From the NCBI GenBank assembly GCA_963667625.1, contig OY763921.1, forward strand, positions 802,241 to 866,240: DNA of 64,000 nucleotides. Reading direction: 5' to 3'. The stretch comes from Thermodesulfobacteriota bacterium. GTDB lineage: Bacteria > Desulfobacterota_D > UBA1144 > Nemesobacterales > Nemesobacteraceae. Under the pieces are notes generated by a model. That model made no database searches and was not told where the DNA came from. It saw only the letters and a list, made by a program, of their open reading frames with translations. The position numbers and the translations under genes are program-made. Shown here piece after piece: positions 869-62,957 of the stretch. Every line of letters begins with the position of its first letter. The first letter of the stretch is position 1.

Positions 869-1837
869 ATGAGAAAACCAAAGCAACTTACCCTGGAACA
901 AAGATACCAGATTTACATCCTGCGCAAAGCAGGGCACAACCAGACCCAGATCGCAAGGCACCTGGGCGTGCACAAATCCACCATAAGCAGGGAACTTCAC
1001 CGCAACCGCGGCAAACGGGGTTACCGTCCCAAGCAGGCTCAGAGGCTTGCGGAGGGCAGGCGCAATTGTTGTGGAAACCGTATCCCCCAACAAACCTGGA
1101 TTCGCGTGGAGCTGCTGCTCGGAGAAGACTGGAGTCCCCAGCAGATAAGCTGCTGGCTTGCCCGAAACGAAAGACTCAGCGTAAGCCACCAGAGCATCTA
1201 CAATCACGTAAGGGAAGACAAGATTAATGGAGGAGATCTCCACACGCACCTTCGCTGCCGCAAGAAGCGCAGAAAGCGCTACGGAGCGCCCTCGCGCAGG
1301 GGACATATAAAAAACCGTGTCTGTATAGACCAGCGCCCCGAAGTGGTGGATAAGCGTGTGCGCTTAGGAGACTGGGAAGCCGACACTGTGCTTGGCTCAA
1401 GAAAAAAAGGCAAGGTGCTCGTAACCCTCGCCGAGCGCAAGTCCCGCTATTGCATGATTCTGGTCTCTGAGGACAAAAAAGCTTCCTCCGTCTCCCGGGC
1501 CATACTCGAGGCGGCGACACCCATGCGCAAGCGCTTCGAGACTGTGACGTGCGATAACGGAAAGGAGTTCGCGTTGCATGAGGAACTATCAAGCGAGCTC
1601 TCGGCGCGGTGGTACTTCGCCCATCCTTACCACTTGTGGGAGCGGGGGTCCTGTGAAAACGCAAACGGACTTATAAGGCAGTACTTCCCAAAGGGAATGG
1701 ACTTCGGGAAACTGACGCAGGAAGATGTAGACAGAGTTATGGACAAATTGAACAACAGACCGAGGCAATGCCTTGGCTTCAAAACCCCGAATCAGGTACT
1801 CTTCGGTGCTGATCCACCTGTTGCGTTTCAAACTTGA
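869..1837 (+). CDS. IS30 family transposase (DDE), 322 aa
   Basis: An N-terminal HTH (LTLEQRYQIYILRKAGHNQTQIARHLGVHKSTISRELHRN) is typical of IS30 transposases. The C-terminal DDE region (DWEADTV...DNGKEF...) lies between the inverted repeats. Confidence 0.9.
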   Translation: MRKPKQLTLEQRYQIYILRKAGHNQTQIARHLGVHKSTISRELHRNRGKRGYRPKQAQRLAEGRRNCCGNRIPQQTWIRVELLLGEDWSPQQISCWLARNERLSVSHQSIYNHVREDKINGGDLHTHLRCRKKRRKRYGAPSRRGHIKNRVCIDQRPEVVDKRVRLGDWEADTVLGSRKKGKVLVTLAERKSRYCMILVSEDKKASSVSRAILEAATPMRKRFETVTCDNGKEFALHEELSSELSARWYFAHPYHLWERGSCENANGLIRQYFPKGMDFGKLTQEDVDRVMDKLNNRPRQCLGFKTPNQVLFGADPPVAFQT

Positions 1838-16337: not shown

Positions 16338-16892
16338 CTATTTCCTGTCCCATAGACCGAGTTTCTCCAACATCCATCGCAGGTCGCTATCGTACAGGGC
16401 TGCGCGTCGAATATCTTCAATTCGGAAACGTTTGCGCAGATCTTCGGCGGATGCCGGTTTACTATAGTTCTGCCAAAGTCTCTGCAGATTCCGTTTGGCT
16501 TCATCCGCTGTTGGAAACTGCTTTTCCCGACCGGTGTGGAGTCTTAGGAGCAGCCCCTCAAAATTCGGTTTCAGGTAAACCAGTTTCAGGTTTTCCGAAT
16601 TCGCTTTTGGTTCAGGATCACGGCCAGACTGTATGTCCTGTTGAAGCCGGTCGGAATCGAGCAGTATCAGCCCGCTTGAGAATTTACCTCTGCTCTGGGT
16701 GCGTTTGCGATACTCATAAACTGCGTGTTCGGTGATTGTAAGACTGTCTCCGCCATTACTGACAGTTATGTCGAAGTGAAAGCTAACACCTTGTTCCTCG
16801 CAGAGGATTCTCAGCCACTTTGCGAGTGAACGTTCACTTTCGCCCTCTGCACCGACAAATATGCGTTTTCGTTTAGGATGTCGCCGGACCAT
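16338..16892 (-). CDS. RloB-like (PF13707) TOPRIM/OLD-nuclease-like protein, AbiLii-like
   Basis: The N-terminus KRKRIFVGAEGESERS matches the RloB consensus (basic stretch, then ILIVCEGEKTE). A DxD is present in LILLDSDRL. The gene lies 3 bp downstream of the ATPase gene. Confidence 0.7.
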   Translation of the reverse strand: MVRRHPKRKRIFVGAEGESERSLAKWLRILCEEQGVSFHFDITVSNGGDSLTITEHAVYEYRKRTQSRGKFSSGLILLDSDRLQQDIQSGRDPEPKANSENLKLVYLKPNFEGLLLRLHTGREKQFPTADEAKRNLQRLWQNYSKPASAEDLRKRFRIEDIRRAALYDSDLRWMLEKLGLWDRK

Positions 16893-16895
16893 CTG

Positions 16896-18107
16896 TCAGC
16901 CGAAAGTGGGCAATCCTCCCAAGGAGCCGCTGCGGTACTGTTTCTGAAGGCTTCCGCCGCGTCGCAGACCTTGGACGTTGCGTAACCCGTATGCGCGCGT
17001 AACGCCGCCGAGATCCTTCTCGACTATGTACACTTCTTCCTTTTCCAGGTCGTCAAGTATGGCCGGGTTATGTAACGAGCAGATCAACTGGGCATTGTTC
17101 GGATTGGTTTCTTTTCTTCGGAACCAGTTGAGGATCTCCAGCACGAGTTCCGTGTGAAAGTCGGAGTCAAGCGAATCCATGATTGCCAGGCCTCCTGTTT
17201 CGAGAACATAGTTAATCAGAGGGAATATGCGTGCCAGATTGCGCGTACCTGCTGACTCAGCCTCAAGTACGACAGGTACGTCCAGCCCCTGATGTTTGAA
17301 AATCATCATCCATTGGGCATCCGAAATTTGTGATATATCCAGGTATTCAATTCCAAGGTCAAAACGTTGCAGCTTTTCGGAAATTTTGTTCACAAGTTCG
17401 GGATTCTCTCTATATGCGCGAATTACCGCATCCGTGTCTGGACGCCACGGGTCGGCGCCCGCAACATTGGTTGATATGTTACGCAGGTCCTGAGCCAATT
17501 TGGGAAAGGGTTCCACCCCCATTCTGTCAAAAGCCGAGATTGCCGAAGCTTCAGACGGAACGGCAGACAGGCGATTGTCACTTGGGCTTACCTTCAACTC
17601 CCTTGCCACATAGATCGGCTTGCCTGGTTCTCTCTCAAGGAGGCGCCGGGAGCGACCCTTGGGAAAGGAATAAATAGATTCGTATTTGACGCCGGGATTT
17701 GCGGCGTTTAAACCGTTCCTGTGAACCTCAAGAACATATCGGTAAAGAGAACCTGTATCACCTATGTTGGGACCAAACCACTTCGTGTCAAATTCCAGAC
17801 CGATTCTAGTAGGCCGGGTTATCATTTCCTGCTCTAGAAACGGGATAAATGACTTGACCGTATTAGAGCCCGAATCATAATAGGAATTTGCGGCGAAGGA
17901 CATGGTTGCGACCAAGGAACGCAGCAGGGTTGTCTTTCCCGAACCGTTGGGTCCGAACATAGCGATTACGCTTGGAAGGCGAATTTCCGGCTGATATGGA
18001 TTCCTCCGGAAACAATCTAATTCAGGGGTTGTGCCGGGGATGCGGAAATCAAGCGATATTTCTTCCCTGACGGATTGGAAATTGGATACCTGAAATTTAT
18101 GTATCAT
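16896..18107 (-). CDS. AAA_21/ABC-type ATPase, AbiLi-like (also OLD/PARIS-AriA-like); track ORF extends to 18218 but the Met at 18107 (MIHKFQVSNFQS...) is the likely start
   Basis: Walker A FGPNGSGKTTLLRSL. The typical AAA_21 N-terminus has the shape I..L.I.NF.S. A D-rich Walker B region is present (LAIMDSLDSDFH). Confidence 0.7.
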   Translation of the reverse strand: MIHKFQVSNFQSVREEISLDFRIPGTTPELDCFRRNPYQPEIRLPSVIAMFGPNGSGKTTLLRSLVATMSFAANSYYDSGSNTVKSFIPFLEQEMITRPTRIGLEFDTKWFGPNIGDTGSLYRYVLEVHRNGLNAANPGVKYESIYSFPKGRSRRLLEREPGKPIYVARELKVSPSDNRLSAVPSEASAISAFDRMGVEPFPKLAQDLRNISTNVAGADPWRPDTDAVIRAYRENPELVNKISEKLQRFDLGIEYLDISQISDAQWMMIFKHQGLDVPVVLEAESAGTRNLARIFPLINYVLETGGLAIMDSLDSDFHTELVLEILNWFRRKETNPNNAQLICSLHNPAILDDLEKEEVYIVEKDLGGVTRAYGLRNVQGLRRGGSLQKQYRSGSLGGLPTFG

Positions 18108-18384
18108 AAAGCTATCTCTACAAATATTTGTTATATAGAAATGATAATACCCTAAAACGAAGCAGTCAAGAATAGTTTTTAGCAAAAAAATATTCTGTGT
18201 TTCTTGCTGCTTTGACAAACAGGTTCAGTCGTATTGGAGGAGAAAAGATCTAGGTCGCGATTTTACGGGCAGGTTAAATTCTCGCATAACGGTTTTCGGC
18301 TGGATGATCAATGGAAGCAATGGTTGCTGAGCAAGAGTTGGTAATTTGCGCGGATAATTTATAATAGACGGAAGGATAGAGTTA

Positions 18385-21194: not shown

Positions 21195-22733
<1,539 letters not shown>

Positions 22734-22808
22734 TTCACGGAGATATCTGTCTTTTTTTCGCTCGCCATCTGCTTTTTATAAAAAAGTATTTGCGCTTATA
22801 AGGCAACG

Positions 22809-22885
<77 letters not shown>

Positions 22886-22888
22886 CTA

Positions 22889-22961
22889 GGGGGTGTAGCT
22901 CAGTTGGGAGAGCGCCTGCTTTGCAAGCAGGAGGTCGACGGTTCGAGCCCGTTCACCTCCA
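22889..22961 (+). tRNA. tRNA-Ala (anticodon TGC) with the G3:U70 identity pair; CCA not encoded
   Basis: GGGGGTGTAGCTCAGTTGGGAGAGCGCCTGCTTTGCAAGCAGGAGGTCGACGGTTCGAGCCCGTTCACCTCCA. Confidence 0.9.
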
Positions 22962-22998
22962 TAGAAGAAGAATTTTTGAATGCTTTTTTGATCTTTGA

Positions 22999-23018
22999 CA
23001 ACTGAATATAACGCTGAG
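22999..23018. repeat. 5' half of the 23S processing stem (pairs with 26059-26078)
   Basis: caactgaatataacgctgag is the perfect reverse complement of ctcagcgttatattcagttg at 26059-26078. Confidence 0.7.
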
Positions 23019-23064
23019 AAACAGAATTGATCGTGTTGTTAGTATTATCGAGGATTTTCATGCC

Positions 23065-26018
<2,954 letters not shown>

Positions 26019-26518: not shown

Positions 26519-26960
26519 TTAGTTGCACGCCGCGTTAGTCGTGGCAATGGTCTGTATGGCGTTCAGCCTAGCTTGCGAAGTTCCTCCTGCGGAAATGTCA
26601 GCGATCGGTCTTTTTACAGCTGTCGATCCTGTTCCCGTGGTATTGATAAGCATTCCTGCATCGCTAATCGAAAGATTAACAGTAGTACCTACCACATAAA
26701 GGGTATCTCCCATAGGATCAAAATCCGAAACAGTATCTAGGCCAGTATCTAAGCCGAAAGAAAAGCAATCATTACCAGCTCCGCCAGTTAGTGTATCATT
26801 ACCAGCTCCGCCAGTTAGTGTATCATTACCAGCTCCGCCGATTAATTCATCGTTGCCTGCTCCACCGTCCAAGGTGTCTTCACCTTCGCCGCCGTCGAGA
26901 TCATCATCTCCGGCTCCACCAACAAGCATGTCATCGCCAGCTCCGCCGTCAAGAGTATCA
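26519..26960 (-). pseudogene. C-terminal fragment of an RTX/hemolysin-type calcium-binding repeat protein, N-terminally truncated at a compositional junction
   Basis: Repeated GGAGNDTLT/GGxGxDxL nonapeptides. The ORF's apparent N-terminus (26960-26995) is just the antisense of the neighbouring high-GC HTH gene. Confidence 0.55.
26768..26848. repeat. 27-bp tandem DNA repeats (about 3 units, then degenerate) encoding the RTX nonapeptide repeats
   Basis: atcattaccagctccgccagttagtgt appears twice exactly, followed by a diverged third copy. Confidence 0.8.
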
Positions 26961-26962
26961 AC

Positions 26963-27175
26963 ATGGATGTTATCCCGCTTGCGAAGCTGGCCCAAGAGCT
27001 GGACATAGATCGGTCCACACTCAGGAAGTGGGTAAGGCGGCAGGGCCTTGAATCCATGCTTGCCCGCTTCCCGGAAACCCGCGGCCAGCTGGCATTAGCC
27101 TTCACCCCCGAGCAAGCCGGGAAGGTCATCAAGGCGCGGCAAGATGAAGGCTACGGCCGAAATGGGGTCACGTGA
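26963..27175 (+). CDS. Small helix-turn-helix DNA-binding protein (70 aa) in the high-GC alien block
   Basis: [24 protein letters not shown] has the pattern of an HTH. GC content is much higher than in the surroundings. Confidence 0.45.
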
Positions 27176-28418: not shown

Positions 28419-29498
28419 CTATCTTCCGTAACGTAGGCGAGCAACGGCATTACGCTCTGCAAGCTGATATTTTGCGTATCGGGCCGGCATCTGGGAAGAT
28501 TTCCAGCGGCCCGCTATCTGCATGTCGACAAGAGTAGCTCCGCCGACAGCCATGCTTTGCGCTGCGCCGACCCGTAGAGAATGGCCGCTTACTCCTTCTA
28601 TCCCGGCCTGCTGCGCTCTGGTTTTCAAAATGCGGCGTATGGATAAAGGGGACAGCGCTGTTTTTCCGACCAGGGATGTCTGGAGATTCCCGCGTGAAAC
28701 CCTGCGAAACAACGCACCGCTGCTCACCTTGCCAAACTGCATCCATGTTTTAATCCTGGCCATCGTTGGGTGCCCAAGGTAAAGAACAGTCCCTTTCCCC
28801 TCCTGGTCCGTCTTTGACCTGCGAATGTTGACCCGCCCGGAACCGTCAGCTTCTTCTGTAACGTCGCAGACAAGCAGTGCCGCCACCTCGGAAATCCTCA
28901 GCATGGCATCGGACATAAGTGATATTAAAGCCCCGTCCCGGATGCCCGTGAGAGAATCTGGATTGCTTAAGGCCAGGGCAACTATTTTTTCCGACTGCGT
29001 CCAGGTAATGCCGCGGGCCTGACCACGTCCTCGGTCCGCGCACCTGCGGCGGAATCCTTTTATTGCCGCGTCTGTGAGTCTGCCCACGGGAGATTCGCGT
29101 TCGCTGAGTTTTGCCATATAGGAAACCGCCGCTATTGCCATCTGGGCGGTTGCAGGAGCCTTGTCTTTGGTTTCCAGTGTCGCGATATAACGGGCAAGTG
29201 ACAGGTCGTTCAGTTTTTCCAGCAATAAGTCAACGGGCAGGGTTCCGTTGTTAATGCCCATAAACTCGCTGATCCGACGCAGAGATCCCCTGTAAGCCTT
29301 AAGCGTATTTTCTGATATGGATTCACTGACAAGATTTTTAAGGCTCTGTTCTATTTCGCCATTTGAAACTATTTCCGCACCTTTGCGGAAAACCGCAATC
29401 TCATCCGATACATGCTCGTCTTCTTCTCCCACACTTCCTCCGACCGATTCATTCGATTTCGCTACTTCTGATTCCTCACGCGAGTTTTGTTTTATCAT
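28419..29498 (-). CDS. Tyrosine-type site-specific recombinase / phage integrase family
   Basis: Catalytic residues seen in LRISE (Arg), GHSLRVGAA (His-x-x-Arg), AGRW (Arg) and PARYAKY (Tyr nucleophile). The N-terminal SAM-like domain has a core-binding-like fold. Confidence 0.85.
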   Translation of the reverse strand: MIKQNSREESEVAKSNESVGGSVGEEDEHVSDEIAVFRKGAEIVSNGEIEQSLKNLVSESISENTLKAYRGSLRRISEFMGINNGTLPVDLLLEKLNDLSLARYIATLETKDKAPATAQMAIAAVSYMAKLSERESPVGRLTDAAIKGFRRRCADRGRGQARGITWTQSEKIVALALSNPDSLTGIRDGALISLMSDAMLRISEVAALLVCDVTEEADGSGRVNIRRSKTDQEGKGTVLYLGHPTMARIKTWMQFGKVSSGALFRRVSRGNLQTSLVGKTALSPLSIRRILKTRAQQAGIEGVSGHSLRVGAAQSMAVGGATLVDMQIAGRWKSSQMPARYAKYQLAERNAVARLRYGR

Positions 29499-29835
29499 TT
29501 GGAACCTCCAGAGGCTTTCAAAAATCCTAACGTTTCCTAAGTAAAGAAATATGGCGACATATCATGCAACTGTATATTCCGACTGAGTTCGGACGCAGCC
29601 TCACTTTCAATTGGAATATGTCGTTTTGGAGTTTTCAAGACATCCGTCTGATTGAAACAGACAGCATGTATTCCGAGCGAGAGAAAATGCGAAATTATTC
29701 TTGCCTGGACAGGTTTACACGCGAGATTCCTTGAAAATGCTGTCAATCACGACAATACTTTTACGGTATGGGATGTAGAGATTCTCTGTTTTCAGGGAGC
29801 TTAAGATATTTAATTCTCTGAGGATAATATCTTGT

Positions 29836-31059
29836 ATGAATGCGGCAGAACTGATTGGAACAATAAATGAAGGGGAGAACTCTTACGTTGAGTTCAAACG
29901 GGATGACGGACAGGCAAACTCACTTGCCAAGGAGATGTCCGCATTGCTTAATCTTGAAGGAGGGCTGATTCTTCTCGGAGTTGAAGACGACGGGTCAGTC
30001 TCAGGCCTTGTCCGAAGTCGCGGCGAAGTGGAACTATGGGTTATGAACATCGCCCGGCAGAATCTTCAGCCAAGCTTTATCCCTCAATGGAGTTCCGTTA
30101 CGCTTGAAGGTGGCAAGGTTGTCGGAATTATTCGCCTGCCTCAGGACAGTTTTGGCAAACCCTACAAAGCCAGGCATGGTTCGACTTGGACCACTTATGT
30201 CAGGGTTGGAAGCACGTCACGGGCTGCTACGCGGGAAGAGGAAGGACGTCTCTATCAGTCTGCTGGGGTTGTTCGGTACGATATAAAGCCTGTAGTCGGA
30301 ACAGATTTCGAAGATCTTGATTTTAATCTGCTTGACAACTATTTCCGTAAGATATTAAAAAGAAAAGAGGTTCCGGAACTTGAGGATGCGGAGAGCTGGC
30401 GGCAGTTACTGATAAACGTTGATCTGCTTGCGATATCTGATAAGACTGTCTACACAACGGTTGCCAGTCTGCTGCTTTTCGGACGAAATCCCAACAGACG
30501 TATTCCGCAGGCTGGAGTTACGGCAACCGCATTTCCTGGGAATGAAAAGGACTATGATACTACCGATGAGGAAATCATAAGAGGGCCTCTTGTGTCTGAG
30601 TTTTCCGGAAGCGGCAGGGTTCTTGAGAAGGGTGTCATTGACAGGGCCGTGGACTTCGTGCTGAGAAACATGGGAACTACAGCCTGGCTTGAAGGAGGCC
30701 GAAGGCTAAGAAAGAAGGCTTTTCCCGATGATGCTATCAGAGAGTCGATAGTGAATGCGGTTGCGCATCGCGATTACACTATTGTGGGTACTGACATTGA
30801 ACTCTCTTTGTACTCGGACCGCATTGAAGTCATTTCCCCTGGCAGGCTCCCGAATGGCGTAACGGTGGATAAAATGAAAGATGGTCTGCGCGCGGCAAGA
30901 AACGAAATGCTGAAGGAAATACTGCGTGACTATGGTTACGTGGAGCATCTGGGTATGGGAGTTCGAAACCGCATTATACGGTCAATGATCACTCACAACG
31001 GCAAGGTTCCGGATCTTATTGAGGAAGGGGAACGTTTTATTGTCCGTCTGTGGAAATAA
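29836..31059 (+). CDS. Schlafen-like AlbA_2 (divergent AAA, PF04326) + HATPase_c_4 (RecG-C-terminal-like) protein; putative regulator or defence ATPase
   Basis: The N-terminus E..YVEFK...LLNLEGGLILLGVEDDG matches the AlbA_2 pattern. The C-terminus ESIVNAVAHRDYTIVGTDIELSLYSDRIEVISPGRLPNG matches HATPase_c_4. Confidence 0.7.
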   Translation: MNAAELIGTINEGENSYVEFKRDDGQANSLAKEMSALLNLEGGLILLGVEDDGSVSGLVRSRGEVELWVMNIARQNLQPSFIPQWSSVTLEGGKVVGIIRLPQDSFGKPYKARHGSTWTTYVRVGSTSRAATREEEGRLYQSAGVVRYDIKPVVGTDFEDLDFNLLDNYFRKILKRKEVPELEDAESWRQLLINVDLLAISDKTVYTTVASLLLFGRNPNRRIPQAGVTATAFPGNEKDYDTTDEEIIRGPLVSEFSGSGRVLEKGVIDRAVDFVLRNMGTTAWLEGGRRLRKKAFPDDAIRESIVNAVAHRDYTIVGTDIELSLYSDRIEVISPGRLPNGVTVDKMKDGLRAARNEMLKEILRDYGYVEHLGMGVRNRIIRSMITHNGKVPDLIEEGERFIVRLWK

Positions 31060-34037: not shown

Positions 34038-34460
34038 ATGTTAAGTCACCGCAGAGACAGGGATGTCGATTTAGCAATTTTTTTACTCAGAGTCGGCTTC
34101 GGCTTCTCGATGCTTATTTTCCACGGCTACGGGAAGCTGATCGGAGGGCCCGAGAGGTGGGCTAAAGTCGGGGGGTCACTGCAGACCTTCGGCATTGATT
34201 TTTATCCGGTTTTCTGGGGTTTTATGGCGGCTTTTGCCGAGTTTTTCTGCTCGGCTTTCATAATCATGGGGATTTTCTTTATTCCCGCGACTTTTCTTCT
34301 GTCCGTTAACATGATCGTGGCGGTTCTCTTTCACCTGTATCTTCCGGAGGAGTCGCCAGCGGCGGGATGGCAGGGGGCTTCACACGCGATTGAATATCTT
34401 TTCGTCTACGTGGTGTTGATGATTTCCGGTCCTGGAAAGTACAGGATAAACCTAGGCTGA
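34038..34460 (+). CDS. DoxX-family membrane protein
   Basis: Four hydrophobic segments of the DoxX pattern (LLRVGFGFSMLIFHGYGKL...). Confidence 0.7.
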   Translation: MLSHRRDRDVDLAIFLLRVGFGFSMLIFHGYGKLIGGPERWAKVGGSLQTFGIDFYPVFWGFMAAFAEFFCSAFIIMGIFFIPATFLLSVNMIVAVLFHLYLPEESPAAGWQGASHAIEYLFVYVVLMISGPGKYRINLG

Positions 34461-35890: not shown

Positions 35891-38422
35891 TTACTCTGTG
35901 TCGACCGACACCTTCTCGAGATTCGTTTTTATTACCCGAAGGAAGTTCTTCCCCATTATTTTCTCGACCACACCGGTCGGATATCCCTTGCCGAGAAGAT
36001 ACTCGGGGAGTGCGGGAAGTTTGGATATGTGTCTCATTTCTTCCGGAAAATCTTTTATCGGCGCTCCGTCCATGTCGGTTCCCACTCCCACGTGATCCTC
36101 GCCGCAGACGCTTATAATGTGGTCTATGTGAGCGTATATGTCTTCGAGGGTAGCGCAGCCTTCTCCTTTCCTTAAGAATTTCCCGTAGAAAACGACCCCG
36201 ATTACCCCGCCCCTCTCGGAAATGGCGCGAAGCTGCTCGTCACGCAGGTTCCTTGGATGGTCCACAAGCGCTCTTGAATTCGAGTGGGTCGCAATGGGTA
36301 TCAGTTCGGTGAGTTCCACGCTCTCCCAGAAGCAGCGTTCGTTAAGGTGGGAGAGATCAAGCGTGGTGCCCAGGGTGTTCATCTGCCCCAGAAGTTCTTT
36401 TCCCTGATCAGATAGCCCTTCCTTGCTTTCAGGCCCGGAAGCGTAGATGTTCCTGTTGTTCCAGGAAAGACCGAGAGCCCGGACGCCCCTTCTCTGGTAT
36501 TCAACAAGATGCTCCGGGTTCAAAATGGGATCAGCTCCTTCCATGAGAGTGAAAAACCCGATCTTTTCGCCTTCCCGCAGTCTGTCTATGTCCCGTCTGC
36601 TTTTTATCTGAAAGACGCTTTCTGAGTGTTCACGGTATATCCCGTCGTAGAGGTCAAGCTGGGCCATGGCTTCCGTTACGGAACGCGCGGGTTTGTGCTT
36701 CGGGTGTATGAAAACGGTGTTGAAAACTACCCTGGCCCCGCCTTGCCTGAGCCCGGGCAGGGTTATCATGCAGGGGACCTCGGGATTCTCAAATTCCCTT
36801 TTGTAGTGGCGCATGTGAAAGGCTATGTCCTGGTGAGCGTCGATGGTGAAAAAAGTAGCCGAAGCGGGAGTTCCCCATCCTCCCCCTCCCGGAGTCTCGA
36901 TTCTCACCGCTTCTCCGGCCTTCACCTCAATAGAGCATTTCGCGGGCAGTTTTTTCTCTTCCGCTCCTGACACAAGCGTGTTCTTACCGCTTTTCCCGTC
37001 TTCTCCGCCCCGGGCTCCCCAGGGCCGCTTCTCCCTTCTCTCGGTTATGAGGGAGACATGGGAATCTTCAAGGAACCTGTACTGCCTTATGATTCCGTCC
37101 CCGCCCGGGAACCTGCCCGCGCCCCCTGATCCCTTTCTTACGGAGTATGATTCCACCATTACGGGAAGCTCCCTCTCGATTGCCTCAACGGGGGTGTTGA
37201 GCGTGTTTGTCATGTGCGTGTGCACCGCGTTTGCTCCACCAGCGCCTGAGCGTCCTCCCATTCCGCCGGCTATGGTTTCATAGTAGGCGTAGGAGGAATC
37301 AGAAGGTGCGTTTCGCGGCGAGCCGAACGCGAGGTTGCTCATCGTTCCCGCGCTTGCCGCCTGTATCATCTCGGGGACTGCCTCGGCGAGCGCTCCGAAC
37401 ACCACGTCCACTATCCTCTGGGACGTCTCGACGTTTCCGCCGACGACCGCGCTTGGGTACTTGGCGTTTAGAATCGAGTCTTCGTCGACTCTGATTTCAA
37501 TCGGCCTCAGGGTTCCCGAGTTAAGAGGCGTGTCCTCACCCGAGAGACACTGAAAACAGTATAAAACCGCGGAGGTTGTTACGCTCAGGGGAGCGTTAAG
37601 ACATCCTTTTACCTTCTTCGAACTTCCTCTGAAGTCGACCACTGCTGTGTCCCCGCTTATTTTTATCTTTACCTGTATCGGTATATTCCTCGTTCCCGCC
37701 CCGTCATCTTCAAGGTAGTCAGTAAAGACGTAATCGCCGTCCGGTATTTTCTCTATGGCGTTTCTAACTAGCCTCTCCCCGTAGTCAAGAAGCCCGGAAG
37801 CGGCTTGGTTTATTTTCGAAAGAGAGTATTTTTCGAGAAGCTCCCGCATCCTTTTCTCCCCGGTATCAAGCGAGGCTATCTGCGCCCGAAGATCCCCTTC
37901 TCTTTCCTCATGATCCCTAGTCGAGAGGATTATTTCCTGAAGCAGGGTTTCACGCACCACGCCCTCTTCCCGTATTCTTGTCGGGGGTATTATGATTCCC
38001 TCTTCGTGAATTGTCGTTGAAAGCGGCATGGACCCCGGGGTGTCGCCCCCTATGTCCGCGTGGTGGGCTCGCGAAGCGAGCAGAAACTCAGGCTTCCCGT
38101 TGACGAACACTGGAGCGATGCACGTTACGTCGGGAAGATGCGTTCCGCCACGGAACGGGTCGTTAAGGATGAAAACGTCTCCAGGGGAGAGATTCTCCGT
38201 CGCTACCGATCTTGCGGCAAACGACATTGACCCCAGGTGTATGGGGATATGGGCGGCCTGGGCGATCATTTCTCCCTCTGAGTTGAATATGGCGCAGGAA
38301 AGATCCCGTCTTTCCTTTATGTTCGGAGAGAATCCGGCTCTTACGAGCACAGAACCCATTTCCTCGGCGATTGTTCCGAGAAGGTTGTTGAAGATCTCTA
38401 GCTCGAAAAGTTCTAGTTCCAT
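35891..38422 (-). CDS. Fusion protein: N-terminal hydantoinase-B / 5-oxoprolinase subunit B-like (HyuB, about residues 1-520) + C-terminal M19 membrane/renal-type dipeptidase (about 525-843)
   Basis: HyuB N-terminus MELELFELEIFNNLLGTIAEEMGSVLVRAGFSPNIKERRDLSCAIF. M19 motifs IDAHQD (cf. DGHND), DLSHLNE, ATHSNSRAL..HPRNL.D, GGVIGVVFYG and HIDHII..CGEDHVGVGTDMDG. Confidence 0.75.
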   Translation of the reverse strand: MELELFELEIFNNLLGTIAEEMGSVLVRAGFSPNIKERRDLSCAIFNSEGEMIAQAAHIPIHLGSMSFAARSVATENLSPGDVFILNDPFRGGTHLPDVTCIAPVFVNGKPEFLLASRAHHADIGGDTPGSMPLSTTIHEEGIIIPPTRIREEGVVRETLLQEIILSTRDHEEREGDLRAQIASLDTGEKRMRELLEKYSLSKINQAASGLLDYGERLVRNAIEKIPDGDYVFTDYLEDDGAGTRNIPIQVKIKISGDTAVVDFRGSSKKVKGCLNAPLSVTTSAVLYCFQCLSGEDTPLNSGTLRPIEIRVDEDSILNAKYPSAVVGGNVETSQRIVDVVFGALAEAVPEMIQAASAGTMSNLAFGSPRNAPSDSSYAYYETIAGGMGGRSGAGGANAVHTHMTNTLNTPVEAIERELPVMVESYSVRKGSGGAGRFPGGDGIIRQYRFLEDSHVSLITERREKRPWGARGGEDGKSGKNTLVSGAEEKKLPAKCSIEVKAGEAVRIETPGGGGWGTPASATFFTIDAHQDIAFHMRHYKREFENPEVPCMITLPGLRQGGARVVFNTVFIHPKHKPARSVTEAMAQLDLYDGIYREHSESVFQIKSRRDIDRLREGEKIGFFTLMEGADPILNPEHLVEYQRRGVRALGLSWNNRNIYASGPESKEGLSDQGKELLGQMNTLGTTLDLSHLNERCFWESVELTELIPIATHSNSRALVDHPRNLRDEQLRAISERGGVIGVVFYGKFLRKGEGCATLEDIYAHIDHIISVCGEDHVGVGTDMDGAPIKDFPEEMRHISKLPALPEYLLGKGYPTGVVEKIMGKNFLRVIKTNLEKVSVDTE

Positions 38423-38935: not shown

Positions 38936-39334
38936 TTAGGGCGACACGCAATTGAAAGTTTGTCGTGGCGGAATCTGCTTTCCATCAGTACCCGAGAAAT
39001 CATAGTATGTTCCTCGACCACTTGGATCAATGACAAAGGAGTAAAGGTATGGATCCCCTATTGATTCATCACCGAAATCCCACCGTCTATCAAACCCTTC
39101 AATCTTAAAAGATGCTTTGTGAGTGATTCCAGCTACCGACACCTCACCAAGTCCAGACTTCTCGCCATTTCTTGCTACTCGAGTCAGTTTGACCACGGCT
39201 GTTTTCTTGTCAAAGTCATATGTACCAAAGCATCGCCATTTCTCAGTTGTGGTGCCACTACTTTCTTGTGCTTGAACAGGGATACAGATTCCCATCAGCA
39301 CGACACACACAACAAGTCTTAAAATCATTCTCAT
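38936..39334 (-). CDS. Secreted hypothetical protein (signal peptide MRMILRLVVCVVLMGICIPVQAQE) in an AT-rich insert
   Basis: ORF with a signal peptide. The track ORF start at 39385 is probably too far upstream. No homology recognised. Confidence 0.4.
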   Translation of the reverse strand: MRMILRLVVCVVLMGICIPVQAQESSGTTTEKWRCFGTYDFDKKTAVVKLTRVARNGEKSGLGEVSVAGITHKASFKIEGFDRRWDFGDESIGDPYLYSFVIDPSGRGTYYDFSGTDGKQIPPRQTFNCVSP

Positions 39335-39676
39335 AATGGGAACAATACATCTAAGGCCTTTCAAAATCAAGCTCATCAACACCAATAGCTATAGTTTGAA
39401 AAAACTTTAGAAAATACTCAGAGAAGAAGTTGGAGGTGTCGCTTGGTCACCACTAGAGTATGCGAGGATAGCTGCCATTCTCCTACTGTGGAGTTTTGGG
39501 CTCAGAGATTTGTCAGCAGTTGCCGGTAGTATTTGCCACATACTCTTAATGATGGAATTTACCGAATGATTAACAGGGATCAATAGAAATTATGCTAGCT
39601 TATTTTTGCCGCTTTTAGCCTATAGAAAAAGTGATCAAAACATTTTTGCAATCACAGCGATTAAGTCTTGGGGACA

Positions 39677-40561
39677 TTACGAGGTTGCGCTTTTGAGCGC
39701 TTCTCCCATCTCGGCCGGGCTTTTGCAGGTGGTGACTCCGGCGCGCTCAAGTGCCCGGAACTTGTCTTCGGCGCTTCCCGAGCCCCCTGAAATGATGGCT
39801 CCCGCGTGACCCATTCTTTTTCCCTTGGGCGCCGTGGCCCCGGCAATGAATGCGGCTATGGGTTTCGTGAAGCTCCGGCTTATGTACTCGGCAGCCTCTT
39901 CTTCGTCAGACCCGCCGATTTCCCCTATCATTATCACCGCGTCTGTGTCCGGGTCGTTCTCAAAGAGCGAGAGCGCGTCAATAAACGTGGTCCCTATAAC
40001 GGGATCGCCGCCTATGCCGATGCACGTCGACTGTCCTATGTCGAGGTTGGTAAGCTGCCAGACGGCCTCGTAGGTAAGTGTTCCGCTTCTTGAGATTATC
40101 CCGACTCTTCCGGGTTTATGTATGTAGCCCGGCATTATTCCCACCTTAGCCTCTCCGGGGGTTATAACGCCCGGGCAGTTGGGTCCGACGAGTCTTGCAT
40201 CAGAACCCCTCATGTATTCCTTTACCCTTACAATATCCAGGGTGGGTATCCCCTCGGTTATGCAGATTACGAGCTTTATGCCTGAATCAAGGGCCTCTAG
40301 CATCGAATCCATAGCAAACGCCGCTGGAACGAACACAAGGGACACGTCCGCTCCGGTTTCCCGCACCGCTTCGGACATGGTGTCGAAAACCGGGAATCCT
40401 TCGACGCTGCTTCCGCCTTTTCCCGGAGTGACGCCGCCGACAACATTGGTTCCGTACTCGCGACACTGGGTCGCGTGGAAAAGCCCGGCGCTTCCCGTTA
40501 TTCCCTGCACCAAAACTTTTGAGTCTTTCTTTACGAGAATGCTTATTTCCCGGTCCTCCAC
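39677..40561 (-). CDS. sucD: Succinyl-CoA synthetase alpha-subunit-like CoA-binding protein (likely GTG start at 40561; track ORF extends to 40777)
   Basis: The Rossmann/CoA-binding N-terminus [12 protein letters not shown] and the phosphohistidine loop [10 protein letters not shown] are present. No sucC is present upstream. Confidence 0.7.
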
Positions 40562-40758
40562 GATGAGTTTTTCAAATGAGGGGGAACTATAACATGCATA
40601 GTCCGTTTTTTCAAAATCCTTCGCTCCGGATTCAGAAACCTCGATATCCAGGGCTGCATATTCCTGAAACGGCCTTCCTTTTTTTTGAAATATCCGTTTT
40701 TCCGGGCTACAGTAACAAGACAGCCTCTTTAACTGTAATACGGCCACAAAACCCTGAA

Positions 40759-42021
40759 ATGAAAAACACCCGTTCATTTCTGTATTTTTTTATCCTGATC
40801 TGCATTCTGGGCTCTTCAGCCTGCCGGAGCAATGACTGCGCGGATGCTTCTCTCTGCATAGGGGTGCTCATCCCCGAGAGAATTTTTGACGGCAGCTATG
40901 ACACCAGGCGACAGGCGGTAGTCTCGGCCGTAGAAGATATCAATGCCGCAGGCGGTGATATAGAACTTGTTTTTGGCCGCGACACTGACCGTTCTTTTGA
41001 TTCTGATGCCCTAGGGAATCTTCTAAACAGGGGGGTCGACGGGATAATAGGTCCGACTACTTCTGCCGATTCCGTGAATCTTGTGGATGATTTTGCTAGA
41101 GCGAATATGGTCGCTATATCACCCTCGGCCAGTTCGGTTGAAATAAGCACTTTCGCCGATGACGGCTACTTCTTCAGAGTTATTCCATCGGACGCATTCC
41201 AGGCGCCCATACTTGCGAAGCTGGTAAAGCAGGCCGGGGGGAAACGCGCGGCCATACTGTTTCGTGACGACAGTTACGGAAGAAACCTCAAGGACGGTCT
41301 TGTCGAATCCCTTAAACAACTGGGAGTAAGCTCACTTGAGCCGATTGAGTACGGGGAAGGTCCCGAGGCGGCAGTAAATGCCGTGGTCAATGCGGTAAAT
41401 GCCGAGGATAATCCTGTAGATTCCATTATTCTCGCACTGTTCCGTGAAGGGGGAGCGAATCTTATGGCCAGCATGCTCAAGAGGGATGAGCTCAATGGAA
41501 GGGTGAGATACTACGGGGCGGATTCTTTGTCAATTGAGGGCTTTGCTGAAATAGTTGTCGCCCTTGACCCCGAAGTGCTCTCGCTTGAGGATATGGAAGG
41601 TTTTGTAACCACAATCGCGGGCCCTGATCCTTGCAGACGGGAAGACAGGAAGGAAGTTTTTGATGAAGCGGGAAGATATGCGAGACAGATATACGATGCT
41701 GTTGCGCTGATGAAGCTTGCGTCCATTAAAAGCGCGTCTTCGGATCCTGCCGTGTATGTCGGGGAAATGATAGGAGTAAGCAGGGATGGGACCAAATGCA
41801 GAACTTATGCCGAATGCGCGGGATTTCTCACCGACGGCGACAGTACCAACGATGATATTGATTATTCCGGCTTTTCAGGCGAGATTGATTTCGATGCTAA
41901 CGGCGACGTAACTAAGGCTTTTTACTACGTACACACTTATGATGACATGGGTGGAAGGCCTGACCCTGTTCTCGTTGACCTGGAAGGGAATCCCGTGGGC
42001 GAGTGTAAGACGAACGACTGA
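40759..42021 (+). CDS. ABC-transporter periplasmic substrate-binding lipoprotein, LivK/Peripl_BP_6-type (branched-chain amino acid-like)
   Basis: Lipoprotein signal [22 protein letters not shown]. The Peripl_BP_6 pattern [14 protein letters not shown] is present. Paralog of 61644-62957. Confidence 0.65.
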
Positions 42022-42140: not shown

Positions 42141-43013
42141 TTACTCTATATTCTGAATCTGCTCCCGTATTTTTTCCAGCTCGAGACGTATGCTTATGGT
42201 AAGGTGCGAGATCCCCGCGTCCTTGCATTTCGCCGATACCGTTCCCGCCTCCCTGTTCATTTCCTGGACCAGAAAGTCAAGCTCCTTCCCCACGGGACCC
42301 TTTTTCCTGGCGGTTTTCCTGAACTTTGAGATATGGGCTTCGAGCCTGACGATCTCCTCGTCAATCTCGCTTTTCTCCGTGATTATTGCCGCGGCTTCCT
42401 GGGATATTAGGGGGTCGTTCTTGTGCCTTGAGGAGAAGATTTTCTCGATTTTCTCCTTTGTCTTCTTGTCGGATTTTTTTACGAATTCCTTTCTTTTTTT
42501 CTTTATGCCGTCAACCGTTTTTTTTATGGCTTCCAGGCGCCCGAGTATGGCTTTTTCAAGTTTCTGTCCCTCGATTTCTCGGCTCTTGTTGAACTTTACC
42601 AGGGTTTTTGCGACCGTTTCCTTGATTCTGGCTTCCGTCTCCTTTGAGACCTCTGGTCCGGCGTGGCTTTCAAAGGAGTTCTCCATCATGAGCAGGTGCT
42701 CAATTCCTATCTCCGTTTTAAGTCCCAGGGAGGAATTGATTCTTTTAAGGGAACTGTGATTCTCCCGGAGAATCTTTTCGGATAACCGCTGTCTTTCCCT
42801 TTTGTTTGTCTGTACGGAGAGCCTCAGGCGGAGTTTTCCTCTCTGAATTGAGTTTTTCATCCTGTCCTCAATGGCCATCTCCATTTGGAGCAACGATTCG
42901 GGAAGGCTTGCCTTTACGTCGAGGAACCTGTGGTTCTCCGACCGCATGTCCACGACGATCTTTCCGATTTCCGTGTTTACGGATGATTCCGCAAAACCTG
43001 TCATGCTTTTCAT
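42141..43013 (-). CDS. yicC: YicC-family stress-induced protein (YicC-N + DUF1732)
   Basis: The N-terminus MKSMTGFA... is characteristic of the YicC family, with a long coiled-coil middle. Confidence 0.75.
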   Translation of the reverse strand: MKSMTGFAESSVNTEIGKIVVDMRSENHRFLDVKASLPESLLQMEMAIEDRMKNSIQRGKLRLRLSVQTNKRERQRLSEKILRENHSSLKRINSSLGLKTEIGIEHLLMMENSFESHAGPEVSKETEARIKETVAKTLVKFNKSREIEGQKLEKAILGRLEAIKKTVDGIKKKRKEFVKKSDKKTKEKIEKIFSSRHKNDPLISQEAAAIITEKSEIDEEIVRLEAHISKFRKTARKKGPVGKELDFLVQEMNREAGTVSAKCKDAGISHLTISIRLELEKIREQIQNIE

Positions 43014-49809: not shown

Positions 49810-50460
49810 ATGTCCATGGCCTCTAAGATACCCTACATGACGTCGACAGGATTGATTCCGAAGATATTGGAGAAAATTCAAAATGCGAGGCGGCCTGAAC
49901 GGTTCACCCAAGACTTCCTAGGAACAAAGCTCGGGCACAGCGGGGGCAGTGCACGAGCTATTATACCGTTACTAAAACGTATGGGATTTCTCGGGTCAGA
50001 TGGTGTTCCAACATTTCTATACGATCAATTCCGTAATGTCGAGACTCAAGGTTTCGCTGTTGCTGAAGGCATGAAGAATGCATTCAGTGAGCTTTTTGAC
50101 CGCAATGAATATATCTACGAAGTGTCTCGTGAAAAGTTAACAGGACAAGTAGTTGAGATCACTGGAGCAACTAAGAACGATAGAAGTACCACAGCTGTCG
50201 TCGGAACCTTTTTAGCATTGAAAGAGCTAGCAGATTTTGAGTACGAGGAGCCGGAGAATCCACTTCCTGAACCAAAATCAGAAGTGCCCCCTTTACCACA
50301 GCTTTCGAATAATGGTGAAAATGTGTCTCCGATTGGCAATAGAGATAACATTGAACTGAGAGTTGGGTATACAATCAATCTTAATCTTCCAGAAACCAAT
50401 GACCCCGAGGTTTTCACAGCTATTTTCAAAGCTCTTAGGGAAAACCTATTGAAAGACTGA
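49810..50460 (+). CDS. Hypothetical protein, 216 aa (DUF5343-like by memory); first gene of a coupled two-gene cassette in an AT-rich insert
   Basis: AT-rich ORF. Its stop TGA overlaps the ATG of the next gene (TGATG). The family call is tentative. Confidence 0.45.
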   Translation: MSMASKIPYMTSTGLIPKILEKIQNARRPERFTQDFLGTKLGHSGGSARAIIPLLKRMGFLGSDGVPTFLYDQFRNVETQGFAVAEGMKNAFSELFDRNEYIYEVSREKLTGQVVEITGATKNDRSTTAVVGTFLALKELADFEYEEPENPLPEPKSEVPPLPQLSNNGENVSPIGNRDNIELRVGYTINLNLPETNDPEVFTAIFKALRENLLKD

Positions 50461-51041
50461 TGCGTGCAGAAGAAGCGATTAAATTATTTGGGTTAAACAA
50501 TTTGACTATCGAGTCAAACATTCGACAGATAGAAAGGAAGTACGATATCAACCTTGGTCACAAGAAGGATAAGGAACAAAGAACAGATCAAACATATTAT
50601 CCTCAATTTGCCGAGCGTCTTCGAGCTGAAGCGTCTCGTATGTCGGCAAATTATACAATTTTCTACTGTCTTGAGAACAGTATCAGAGAATTAATTGTTC
50701 AACGGCTTGAAGAAGAACACGGCACTAACTGGTGGGACACGGCCGTACCAAAAGTCGTTCGTAGCAATGCTGAGAAAAATCGAGAGAAAGAACTATCATC
50801 AGGTGTTACTCCCCGTTCAACAGAGCTAATAGATTTCACAAATTTTGGGGAGCTGGGGGAAATCATTAAGGCTAATTGGGACATTTTTGGTGATATGTTT
50901 CGCGATGTTCGAGCGGTCGAAAAGGTTCTGGCAACGCTTAACACATTGCGTGCGCCCATAGCACACTGCAAAACACTCGCAGAGGATGAGGAATTACGAC
51001 TGCATCTTGGCCTGCGCGACTGGTTTCGCCAGATGGAATAA
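50460..51041 (+). CDS. Swt1-like HEPN-domain protein (putative RNase), 193 aa
   Basis: Rx4H motif in LNTLRAPIAHCK, embedded in a predicted all-alpha protein. Translationally coupled to the upstream gene. Confidence 0.5.
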   Translation: MRAEEAIKLFGLNNLTIESNIRQIERKYDINLGHKKDKEQRTDQTYYPQFAERLRAEASRMSANYTIFYCLENSIRELIVQRLEEEHGTNWWDTAVPKVVRSNAEKNREKELSSGVTPRSTELIDFTNFGELGEIIKANWDIFGDMFRDVRAVEKVLATLNTLRAPIAHCKTLAEDEELRLHLGLRDWFRQME

Positions 51042-61643: not shown

Positions 61644-62957
61644 TTAATTTGTATTCGCTTCTTCGCCTTCAAAATTCAAATAATTTCTTTGCGGGTTGCC
61701 CTGAGCATCGTATGTATCAACCGCGTAGAGTCCGTCCGTTATGTCTCCGTATTCATTAAGATCGATCGGACCCGAGATTCCTTCGTAGTCGATGTCGTCG
61801 TTAACCTTGGTCTCATCCGTAAGAGCGGCGGCGCAGGTAGCGTAACTGTGGCATTTTGTTCCCCCTGCCGTGACTTCCTGAACCTTGGAAACGTAATCGG
61901 AGGGATCATTGCTTCCGGCACTTAGAGCGGCGAGCCTGAGTATGATCACCGCGTCGTAGGCGTGCGCGGCATAATCACTGAAATCAAACCGTTCTTTAAA
62001 CTCATCAAGCCTTGGACCGGGAGGCGGAGTTGAGATTACCTGCTTGAACCCTTCAATCTCGCCGTTTTCCTCATCCACATGCTGGAAAAGGGCGGCAGAG
62101 AACGGGAGCCCGTCTCCGAAGTAGTATCCGACCTCATCGGGAACTTCGGAGGAATCAAGCAGTCCCCTGACTATGGCCCCTCCCTCAACGTTAAAAACAA
62201 GCAGCACTATGGATTCTACGTTCTGGATTCCCTGTATTTCAGTTTCAACATCTGAAACCACATCGGCGGCCCGCTGCGAAACCGTGTCTTCATTTGCGTC
62301 ATCCGGGAAATCAGCGGGGTCATAGCTAACGACCTTGACCTGTCTGCCGTCACGGGTTATTTCGTCTCTCACTAGCGCCTCGAGAGCTGCTCCCCACGCG
62401 TCATCACGATACACTATGACCGTGTTGCCCTGGGACTGTTTTGCCAGTATCGGGGCCTGAAAGAGGTCGGAAGGGGCTACTCTGAAGAAAAAAGGCTGGT
62501 TTCCGCTGTCTGCGATCTTTTTGTTTTCATCCGTGAGGGTGGGGGAAGTTGCCGAGGGAGAAATGGCCACTATCTCGTTATCGCTCAGAAGAGGATGAAT
62601 AGACAGGGAGTCTGAGGAGTATGAAGGCGCTACCATGCCGTGGACGCCCATTTCAAGAAGCTGAGTTGCGCTTGCCGTCGCTTGGGACGCTCCCGCCTGA
62701 AAAGAGTTTCCACTTATGATTTCCACATTTCCCCCAGCCTTGTTAATGTCTTCTTTGGCTAGATTAACGGCTTCTATAAGAGAGCCGTTAAACCCTTCGC
62801 CTTCAGCCAGAAGCGTTCCTATGCAGAAGGCCTCCCCGCAGTCTATTCCGTCCCCGTCGTCGTCTCCGCTCCAGAGATCATCCCAGCTGCATCCCGAGAA
62901 AAGCAGTCCCGATAGAATGAACAGAAAAACATATCCAAAAGCACTCATTTTTTTCAT
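61644..62957 (-). CDS. ABC-transporter periplasmic substrate-binding lipoprotein, LivK/Peripl_BP_6-type; paralog of 40759-42021
   Basis: Lipobox LLFSGC. Shared C-terminal block with the paralog (DDIDYEGISGPIDLNEYGD versus [19 protein letters not shown]). Confidence 0.65.
   Translation of the reverse strand: MKKMSAFGYVFLFILSGLLFSGCSWDDLWSGDDDGDGIDCGEAFCIGTLLAEGEGFNGSLIEAVNLAKEDINKAGGNVEIISGNSFQAGASQATASATQLLEMGVHGMVAPSYSSDSLSIHPLLSDNEIVAISPSATSPTLTDENKKIADSGNQPFFFRVAPSDLFQAPILAKQSQGNTVIVYRDDAWGAALEALVRDEITRDGRQVKVVSYDPADFPDDANEDTVSQRAADVVSDVETEIQGIQNVESIVLLVFNVEGGAIVRGLLDSSEVPDEVGYYFGDGLPFSAALFQHVDEENGEIEGFKQVISTPPPGPRLDEFKERFDFSDYAAHAYDAVIILRLAALSAGSNDPSDYVSKVQEVTAGGTKCHSYATCAAALTDETKVNDDIDYEGISGPIDLNEYGDITDGLYAVDTYDAQGNPQRNYLNFEGEEANTN

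Follow-up and report, generated by a model that had tools for sequence, protein, structure and literature searches.

The 64,000-nucleotide stretch analyzed here (hereafter the window; positions 802,241 to 866,240 of contig OY763921.1 in assembly GCA_963667625.1, assigned to a Thermodesulfobacteriota bacterium) contains a complete gene on its minus strand (35891..38422; 843 codons and a stop, with an ATG start) that encodes a hydantoinase-B-type domain and an M19 dipeptidase-type domain in a single polypeptide. The N-terminal Hydantoinase_B/oxoprolinase-B (HyuB) domain (residues 6-519; 36866..38407, minus strand) is matched by Pfam PF02538 over profile positions 3-519 of 519 (E 3.4e-202; 672.9 bits against a cut-off of 26.8), and the C-terminal Peptidase_M19 domain, a renal-dipeptidase-type amidohydrolase (residues 523-832; 35927..36856, minus strand), by PF01244 over positions 5-318 of 319 (E 1.6e-81; 274.4 bits against a cut-off of 26). 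An original prediction, made from the sequence letters, had described an uninterrupted 843-residue open reading frame (ORF) with a HyuB-like N-terminal half and an M19 dipeptidase-like C-terminal half; the ORF list, the translation and the two full-length Pfam matches bear out all three points and add the strand, which had not been given.

This HyuB-M19 fusion is a new, lineage-restricted domain architecture made from two known enzyme families, and it lies far beyond chance occurrence, judging from these E-values and from its conservation in further assemblies. The exact window protein has no database record by exact look-up, and the named public records of the fusion are entitled "hypothetical protein" or "N-methylhydantoinase B". 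A scan for promoter and terminator sites in the window returned no more of them than shuffled sequences did.

Both catalytic centers are intact

In the HyuB half, alignment to chain B of the caprolactamase structure 6YRA places a metal tetrad on the minus strand at D40 (38303-38305), H95 (38138-38140), D98 (38129-38131) and H120 (38063-38065), which align with D41, H99, D102 and H124 of CapB, the residues named as its metal ligands (PMC8453981). This tetrad is invariant in 15 relatives. A comparison of 119 Dadabacteria sequences and the window protein with 55 outgroup sequences that have a HyuA partner finds 140 positions at which both groups conserve the same residue, 7 that have switched residue and 2 that have lost constraint. 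Much of the N-terminal helix is among the positions conserved in both groups; in CapAB, this helix of CapB is in contact with CapA and lies alongside the tunnel through which the activated lactim arrives (PMC8453981).

In the M19 half, a MAFFT alignment with human DPEP1, in a sequence confirmed as identical to 1ITQ_A, maps the minus-strand-encoded residues H530, D532, E628, H692, H713, R724 and D783 to H20, D22, E125, H198, H219, R230 and D288, respectively. All five metal ligands and the equivalents of R230 and D288 are thus kept, as they are in six relatives. The M19 motif set named in the original prediction is present in full, namely IDAHQD (H530/D532), DLSHLNE (H692), ATHSNSRAL (H713) and HIDHII...GTDMDG (D783). 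An AlphaFold model shows both domains with confidence (mean predicted local distance difference test score of 86.8), while the predicted template modeling (pTM) score of 0.64 leaves their relative orientation undefined. The fusion protein is predicted to be bifunctional and cytosolic, with two intact metal-hydrolase centers that are kept across its relatives.

The junction and the distribution of the fused form

Comparison with the C-termini of stand-alone HyuB proteins and the N-termini of stand-alone M19 proteins, together with a codon view, places the junction at residues 520-523 (36854..36865, minus strand). The sequence reads ...ETPGGGGWGTP-ASAT-FFTIDAHQD, such that a linker of about four residues, ASAT, separates the C-terminal HyuB motif GGGGWGTP from the N-terminal M19 motif FFTIDAHQD, and both sides are the normal ends of the corresponding stand-alone proteins from related loci. 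The junction, which we compared directly in the window and in one fused relative (L005), is in frame and free of homopolymer ambiguity, with stops in the other two frames.

The original prediction had proposed looking for other genomes with the same domain architecture. In a search of 5.8 billion proteins, we recover at least 36 full-length fused clusters carrying both Pfam domains, with lengths of 840-853 aa and 76-94% identity to the window protein. They derive from NCBI, ENA, JGI and Logan assemblies, some of them on contigs of 1.5-2.4 Mb, and those that are named are assigned to Candidatus Dadabacteria. The fused proteins form one clade in a neighbour-joining tree of the HyuB domain, and the sole "unfused" members of this clade are two short proteins (534 and 547 aa) that are apparently truncated. 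The next-best matches are stand-alone HyuB proteins (519-527 aa, 62-69% identity), whose records bear the names of Dadabacteria, Thermodesulfobacteriota or Deltaproteobacteria metagenome-assembled genomes (MAGs); in the GTDB taxonomy, the latter two names probably cover the Dadabacteria lineage as well.

In an exhaustive HMMER search of 1.84 billion representative proteins, only one of the best 150 matches aligns with both domains, namely the Dadabacteria cluster, and the rest of the best 150 (at least 377 bits) match through the HyuB region alone, many of them being HyuA-HyuB fusions of 1150-1300 aa. An independent fusion of typical similarity would have ranked among these best 150. In the literature, we found no description of a HyuB-M19 pairing, of a hydantoinase or oxoprolinase in Dadabacteria, or of a HyuB without HyuA, and the supplements of the marine Dadabacteria paper contain no match to K01473, K01474, K01469, K01273 or "hydantoinase".

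Origin from adjacent genes

The hyuB-M19 pair is found in all eight Dadabacteria-type loci examined, adjacent and co-oriented, in four locus arrangements. In the unfused relatives, a separate M19 gene lies 3' of hyuB on the same strand, with a gap of 2 nt in one locus (L009) and 80 nt in another (L004), while five loci (L001-3, L006 and L008) have the order hyuB-Memo-M19. The window gene order of yicC, sucD, hyuB, M19, doxX and rmuC agrees with that of the unfused relatives, and the same-strand adjacency in these relatives indicates that the fusion joined neighboring genes. The M19 half is 57-63% identical to its stand-alone neighbors and the HyuB half 63-67% to theirs, and these similar identities to adjacent unfused genes identify the halves as orthologues that have diverged in step.

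Separate hyuB and M19 genes in L003, L004, L006, L008 and L009 make the window gene a Rosetta-stone fusion in the strict sense, in agreement with the original prediction, since related genomes carry its two halves as distinct genes lying side by side. The fusion arose in one Candidatus Dadabacteria clade by loss of the hyuB stop codon and a short spacer. Taken together, the architecture, its origin and the intactness of its catalytic sites are close to certain in our judgment. Genes that stay adjacent where their flanks differ (L009 versus L004 and L006) and then fuse are a textbook sign of participation in one pathway or complex, and we consider it likely that the two halves are functionally linked.

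Two further genes accompany the pair in one Dadabacteria subclade, to which they are limited: both are absent from the window, L004, L005 and L009. One is the 407-aa Memo-family gene (e.g., L006 11581-12804), whose start overlaps the hyuB stop by 4 nt in that subclade. The other is a 154-aa ORF without a family match, which precedes hyuB and is conserved in the Memo-carrying loci (L001-L003, L006 and L008).

Absence of hyuA from the vicinity of the pair

Searches by tblastn (E<=10) with two HyuA queries detect no HyuA-like sequence in the window or in the Dadabacteria-type loci L001-L010, with only noise being returned. The queries were taken from the hyuA-hyuB operons of Thermomicrobium roseum and Haloferax alexandrinus, the closest annotated plasmid relatives, whose HyuB proteins are 48-50% identical to the HyuB half of the fusion. 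Pfam scans of 42 of the 61 window ORFs of at least 80 aa, which cover nearly all of the ORFs longer than 150 aa, found no HyuA either. The tblastn result for the window confirms what the original prediction had said about the lack of a nearby hyuA partner.

To place this absence in context, we compiled an outgroup set of one genome per species, giving 79 listed non-Dadabacteria hyuB loci from many phyla with 47-52% identity. Among these listed matches, hyuA lies directly upstream of hyuB in 62 of 79 loci, 7 have too little upstream sequence, and approximately 10, out of about 72 that can be assessed, have no hyuA within 10 kb. An M19 gene occurs in none of the 79 loci. Relative to the outgroup, then, the combination of a missing adjacent hyuA with an M19 neighbor is specific to the Dadabacteria clade.

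In neighbour-joining trees, the Dadabacteria HyuB clade is monophyletic in 60/60 bootstraps. Its sister is a pair of sequences (L035 and L062; 48/60 bootstraps) from a Thermodesulfatator MAG and a "Deltaproteobacteria" MAG, both of which are without an adjacent hyuA. Other hyuB genes without an adjacent hyuA nest closely among hyuA-linked ones at distances of 0.31-0.41, and this nesting means that non-adjacency is no proof that hyuA is absent from a genome.

The outgroup loci without hyuA within 10 kb are L035, L043, L049, L061, L062, L065, L085, L087, L090 and L092. Four of the loci without a nearby hyuA are from Acidobacteria and constitute one HyuB clade (60/60 bootstraps); judged by ORF N-termini, they look alike, with a short divergent ORF upstream and two long ORFs downstream. 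Other hyuA-less hyuB genes of the outgroup sit amid housekeeping genes, such as rseP, tsaB, dnaA and bamA.

Comparison with characterized enzymes

The HyuB half resembles several enzymes of known structure or activity. Residues 8-519 match residues 9-533 of CapB, from the Pseudomonas jessenii caprolactamase CapAB (6YRA), end to end (E 8e-56), and the Asp-His-Asp-His metal site and the N-terminal helix are retained. The relatives of CapAB include ATP-dependent lactamases as well as acetone and acetophenone carboxylase. However, the fusion scores only 247.5 bits against the cut-off of 1000 of the CapB equivalog model (NCBIfam NF050157), and the hydrophobic pocket residue Leu38 of CapB corresponds to Glu37 in the fusion, as read by hand from the alignment. 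Unlike CapAB, the fusion has no adjoining CapA/HyuA gene, and the small C-terminal domain of CapB is absent, with the M19 domain in its place.

Human OPLAH, an ATP-hydrolysing 5-oxoprolinase (OplAB in bacteria) whose sequence as used here was confirmed only indirectly, is 40% identical to the fusion over 534 residues, and the two share the motifs NIKERxDxSCAxF (around the ligand D40), HIPxHLG, GGxHLPD and HHADIGGxTPGSMP. HyuA-HyuB fusions of 1150-1300 aa, some of which are automatically labelled 5-oxoprolinase by JGI, are 43-50% identical to the fusion. OPLAH is likewise a HyuA-HyuB fusion, whereas in the window protein HyuB is combined with an M19 dipeptidase, and HyuA is lacking in the vicinity. 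The best solved match of the HyuB half is the "N-methylhydantoinase" 7HK5 (1288 aa, HyuA-HyuB), in which residues 706-1229 match residues 9-519 of the fusion (E 4e-84); it differs in the motif near the first metal ligand (IRESEDLGAGLF against IKERRDLSCAIF) and in having its own HyuA half. We compared OPLAH, N-methylhydantoinase and CapB as guides to the substrate, and overall similarity does not discriminate among them.

The M19 half belongs to the same fold family (PF01244) as DPEP1 (1ITQ), Streptomyces Sco3058 (3ID7) and the fungal Cys-Gly-type dipeptidase GliJ (5LX0), with low similarity to all three (E 1e-20 to 1e-27). Unlike DPEP1, it has no signal peptide or membrane anchor, and the domain is cytosolic and fused. 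Its closest solved relatives are Listeria Lmo2462 (3LU2) and 3NEH (E 8e-40), whose match covers the domain query only from residue 65 onward. These proteins share GL(S/T)WNN with the M19 half, including a Trp at the position of DPEP1 His152, but they are stand-alone and bear generic names in the PDB ("Lmo2462 protein" and "Renal dipeptidase family protein").

Neighboring genes and other features of the window

Directly upstream of the fusion gene lies a 149-aa ORF (38936..39385, minus strand) with a hydrophobic, signal-like N-terminus, for which there is no Pfam or NCBIfam match and no tblastn match in the related loci. We considered this ORF as a small conserved partner protein and rejected it, as it shows no similarity to the 154-aa ORF that precedes hyuB in L006. 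Next is sucD, encoding the alpha subunit of succinate--CoA ligase (39677..40777, minus strand; NCBIfam NF004230, 458 bits against a cut-off of 336), with its true start probably near residue 79 of the ORF. This gene is the upstream neighbor of hyuB in most Dadabacteria loci (L001, L004, L005, L006 and L008). The genes sucC and sucD are normally adjacent; by tblastn, no sucC is found beside sucD in the window or in the related Dadabacteria loci. SucD as a functional partner of the pair is unsupported: the gene is a bona fide sucD, and it is absent beside the pair in L009.

Further upstream is yicC (42141..43013, minus strand; Pfam YicC-like_N and YicC-like_C). Downstream and convergent with the fusion gene is doxX (34038..34460, plus strand; Pfam DoxX), and DoxX is also found downstream of hyuB-M19 in L004, L005 and L009. 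The synteny yicC-sucD-hyuB(-M19)-doxX is conserved, with this order repeated in L004-L008. Between yicC and sucD, the window has an ANF_receptor/Peripla_BP_6 solute-binding protein gene (40576-42021, plus strand) that overlaps the extended sucD ORF, at a position that is empty or occupied by DUF4416 in other Dadabacteria loci; a second gene of this kind is found at 61644-62957 (minus strand).

Elsewhere in the window, there is a complete rRNA operon (21195-26016, plus strand), with the 16S rRNA at 21195-22733, tRNA-Ile and tRNA-Ala at 22809-22961, and the 23S rRNA at 23069-26016; no 5S rRNA is matched by Rfam at the gathering threshold anywhere in the window. Between this operon and rmuC, a tyrosine integrase (28419-29498, minus strand) and a Schlafen/AlbA_2 and HATPase_c_4 protein (29836-31059, plus strand) occupy a stretch (28419-31059) that possibly represents a small integrated element. 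In L005, too, a Schlafen/AlbA_2 gene lies close to the fused gene. A transposase-like ORF with HTH_38 and an rve integrase core (869-1837, plus strand) is putatively IS30-like. Possible defense or toxin-type genes include an AAA_21 (AbiEii-like) ATPase with a 184-aa partner ORF (16338-18218, minus strand) and a DUF5343 and Swt1-like HEPN pair (49810-51041, plus strand). Finally, an RTX/HemolysinCabind repeat protein is encoded at 26519-26995 (minus strand), and such repeats are also found in the 76%-identical fused relative L005 (13253-18377), with Collagen and HemolysinCabind matches.

Proposed function and alternatives

5-Oxoprolinase and Cys-Gly dipeptidase catalyze two steps of the gamma-glutamyl/glutathione degradation cycle, and gamma-glutamylcyclotransferases of the ChaC type release exactly 5-oxoproline and Cys-Gly. 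The best explanation overall, to which we assign a probability of roughly 0.5, is that the fusion is real, serves one pathway, performs gamma-glutamyl-type chemistry and depends on a remote HyuA. In this scheme, the two active sites would each hydrolyze an amide bond of a small nitrogenous compound, and the fusion would process both products of the breakdown of gamma-glutamyl peptides or glutathione by gamma-glutamylcyclotransferase. The M19 half would cleave a dipeptide, either Cys-Gly-like or L-Xaa-D-Xaa, while the HyuB half would open a 5-oxoproline-type lactam, supplied to it as an ATP-activated (phosphorylated) lactim by a HyuA-type ATPase whose gene lies at another place in the genome.

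The original prediction had suggested a possible salvage route for glutathione or cyclic dipeptides. The assignment to 5-oxoproline and Cys-Gly in particular is plausible and fits established chemistry, and we advance the specific oxoproline/dipeptide chemistry with a remote HyuA only tentatively. Opening of the 5-oxoproline ring is unfavorable without ATP (PMC8453981), and thus this chemistry would need a HyuA encoded elsewhere. From the near-complete constraint at positions conserved in HyuA-partnered homologues, we infer that the HyuB half is still served by a remote HyuA-type ATPase, and the undiminished conservation of HyuB mildly favors such a gene.

Several observations weigh against this scheme. 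No hyuA is present in the window or within 10 kb of the gene in the eight Dadabacteria loci, such that a remotely encoded HyuA is an assumption, and the conservation comparison has low power for surface interface residues. None of ggt, chaC, gshA and gshB was found in the window by Pfam scans of the same 42 of 61 ORFs. The fusion's likeness to 7HK5 (286 bits by phmmer), to CapB (194 bits) and to human OPLAH (~40% identity) does not separate their substrates. In the M19 half, the equivalent of DPEP1 His152 is missing, with W654 in its place within the motif GLSWNN, as is the case in Listeria 3NEH/3LU2 and Rhodobacter 3FDG; in the literature on 1ITQ and Sco3058, this His is the proposed contact to the scissile carbonyl or tetrahedral intermediate. 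A fixed channel between the domains, which we also considered, finds no support in the AlphaFold model with its pTM of 0.64.

The chief competing explanation, which we judge somewhat unlikely, is that the HyuB metal site and the M19 domain make up a self-sufficient, ATP-independent hydrolase (or cyclase/hydrolase) in Dadabacteria. Its substrate would be one that can react without being phosphorylated, for example a more labile cyclic amide or a pre-phosphorylated compound, or the enzyme might run in the thermodynamically favored, ring-closing direction. Several features of the loci fit this proposal: hyuA is absent at every Dadabacteria locus examined, in contrast to its position directly upstream in most of the listed outgroup loci; hyuB is tightly coupled to M19 up to the point of fusion, and overlaps Memo by 4 nt in some lineages; the sister hyuB genes (L035 and L062) are also without an adjacent hyuA; and the pair is retained in small genomes (1.3-2.4 Mb contigs). 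However, the positions shared with HyuA-partnered proteins are almost unchanged (140 shared against 7 switched and 2 relaxed), and other non-adjacent hyuB genes nest with hyuA-linked ones, suggesting that often the partner gene has merely moved. We know of no HyuB-family protein that acts alone. CapB, for its part, receives its activated lactim through a tunnel from CapA (PMC8453981). That Dadabacteria are without any HyuA, with the HyuB metal center recruited to the M19 amidohydrolase as an ATPase-free enzyme, is likewise somewhat unlikely in our assessment.

An improbable, lesser variant is the recycling of peptidoglycan peptides, in which the M19 half would cleave muropeptide-derived L-Xaa-D-Xaa dipeptides, such as L-Ala-D-Glu, and the HyuB half would interconvert the resulting (D-)glutamate and 5-oxo-(D-)proline. 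Sco3058, a characterized bacterial M19 enzyme, reportedly prefers L-Xaa-D-Xaa dipeptides (2010 work of Cummings et al.), and the gene pair sits amid housekeeping genes. Dadabacteria have moreover been predicted to degrade or recycle peptidoglycan (PMC8115339). Set against these points, murein-recycling genes (ampG, ldcA, mpl and an epimerase gene) are not beside the pair in any locus examined, and the generic PDB names of 3NEH and 3LU2, the closest solved M19 relatives, give no indication of the substrate preference of this M19 subgroup.

We regard a neutral fusion as very improbable. Here, a small deletion would have joined unrelated neighbors, with the product tolerated and the architecture uninformative about a pathway. 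A spacer as short as the 2 nt of L009 would make such an event mutationally easy, and the inter-domain packing in the AlphaFold model is not confident (pTM 0.64), but adjacency and co-orientation are kept across Dadabacteria lineages with differing flanks (L009 versus L004 and L006), both halves diverge at matching rates, and the fused form is retained over a clade spanning 76-94% identity. The possibility raised by the original prediction, that an assembly or frameshift artefact merged two genes, is refuted for practical purposes by the same architecture in at least 36 full-length clusters (840-853 aa) from differing assemblies and sources, including megabase-scale contigs, by the monophyly of the fused form, and by an in-frame junction with no homopolymer ambiguity and closed alternative frames.

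Implications

To our knowledge, the only role understood for HyuB-family proteins is that of the ring-opening half in ATP-driven lactamases and carboxylases with two subunits. Across all the Dadabacteria-type loci examined, an M19 dipeptidase stands in for the usual hyuA neighbor, and in one clade the two are welded together. The fusion provides a concrete, testable functional link for two widely mis-annotated families, whose members are entered as "N-methylhydantoinase B", "membrane dipeptidase" or "hypothetical protein", and the pairing across Dadabacteria points to an uncharacterized shared pathway. For a marine and sponge-associated lineage that is uncultured and has a streamlined genome, the fusion opens a way into the salvage of nitrogen, peptides or glutathione. 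Should HyuA prove to be missing altogether, these organisms would also show, as a natural test, whether ATP activation is dispensable for the HyuB metal site, and an ATPase-free enzyme, if confirmed, would be the first HyuB-family protein to act without an ATP-dependent activating subunit, performing a phylum-wide, housekeeping-like step in amide or lactam processing.

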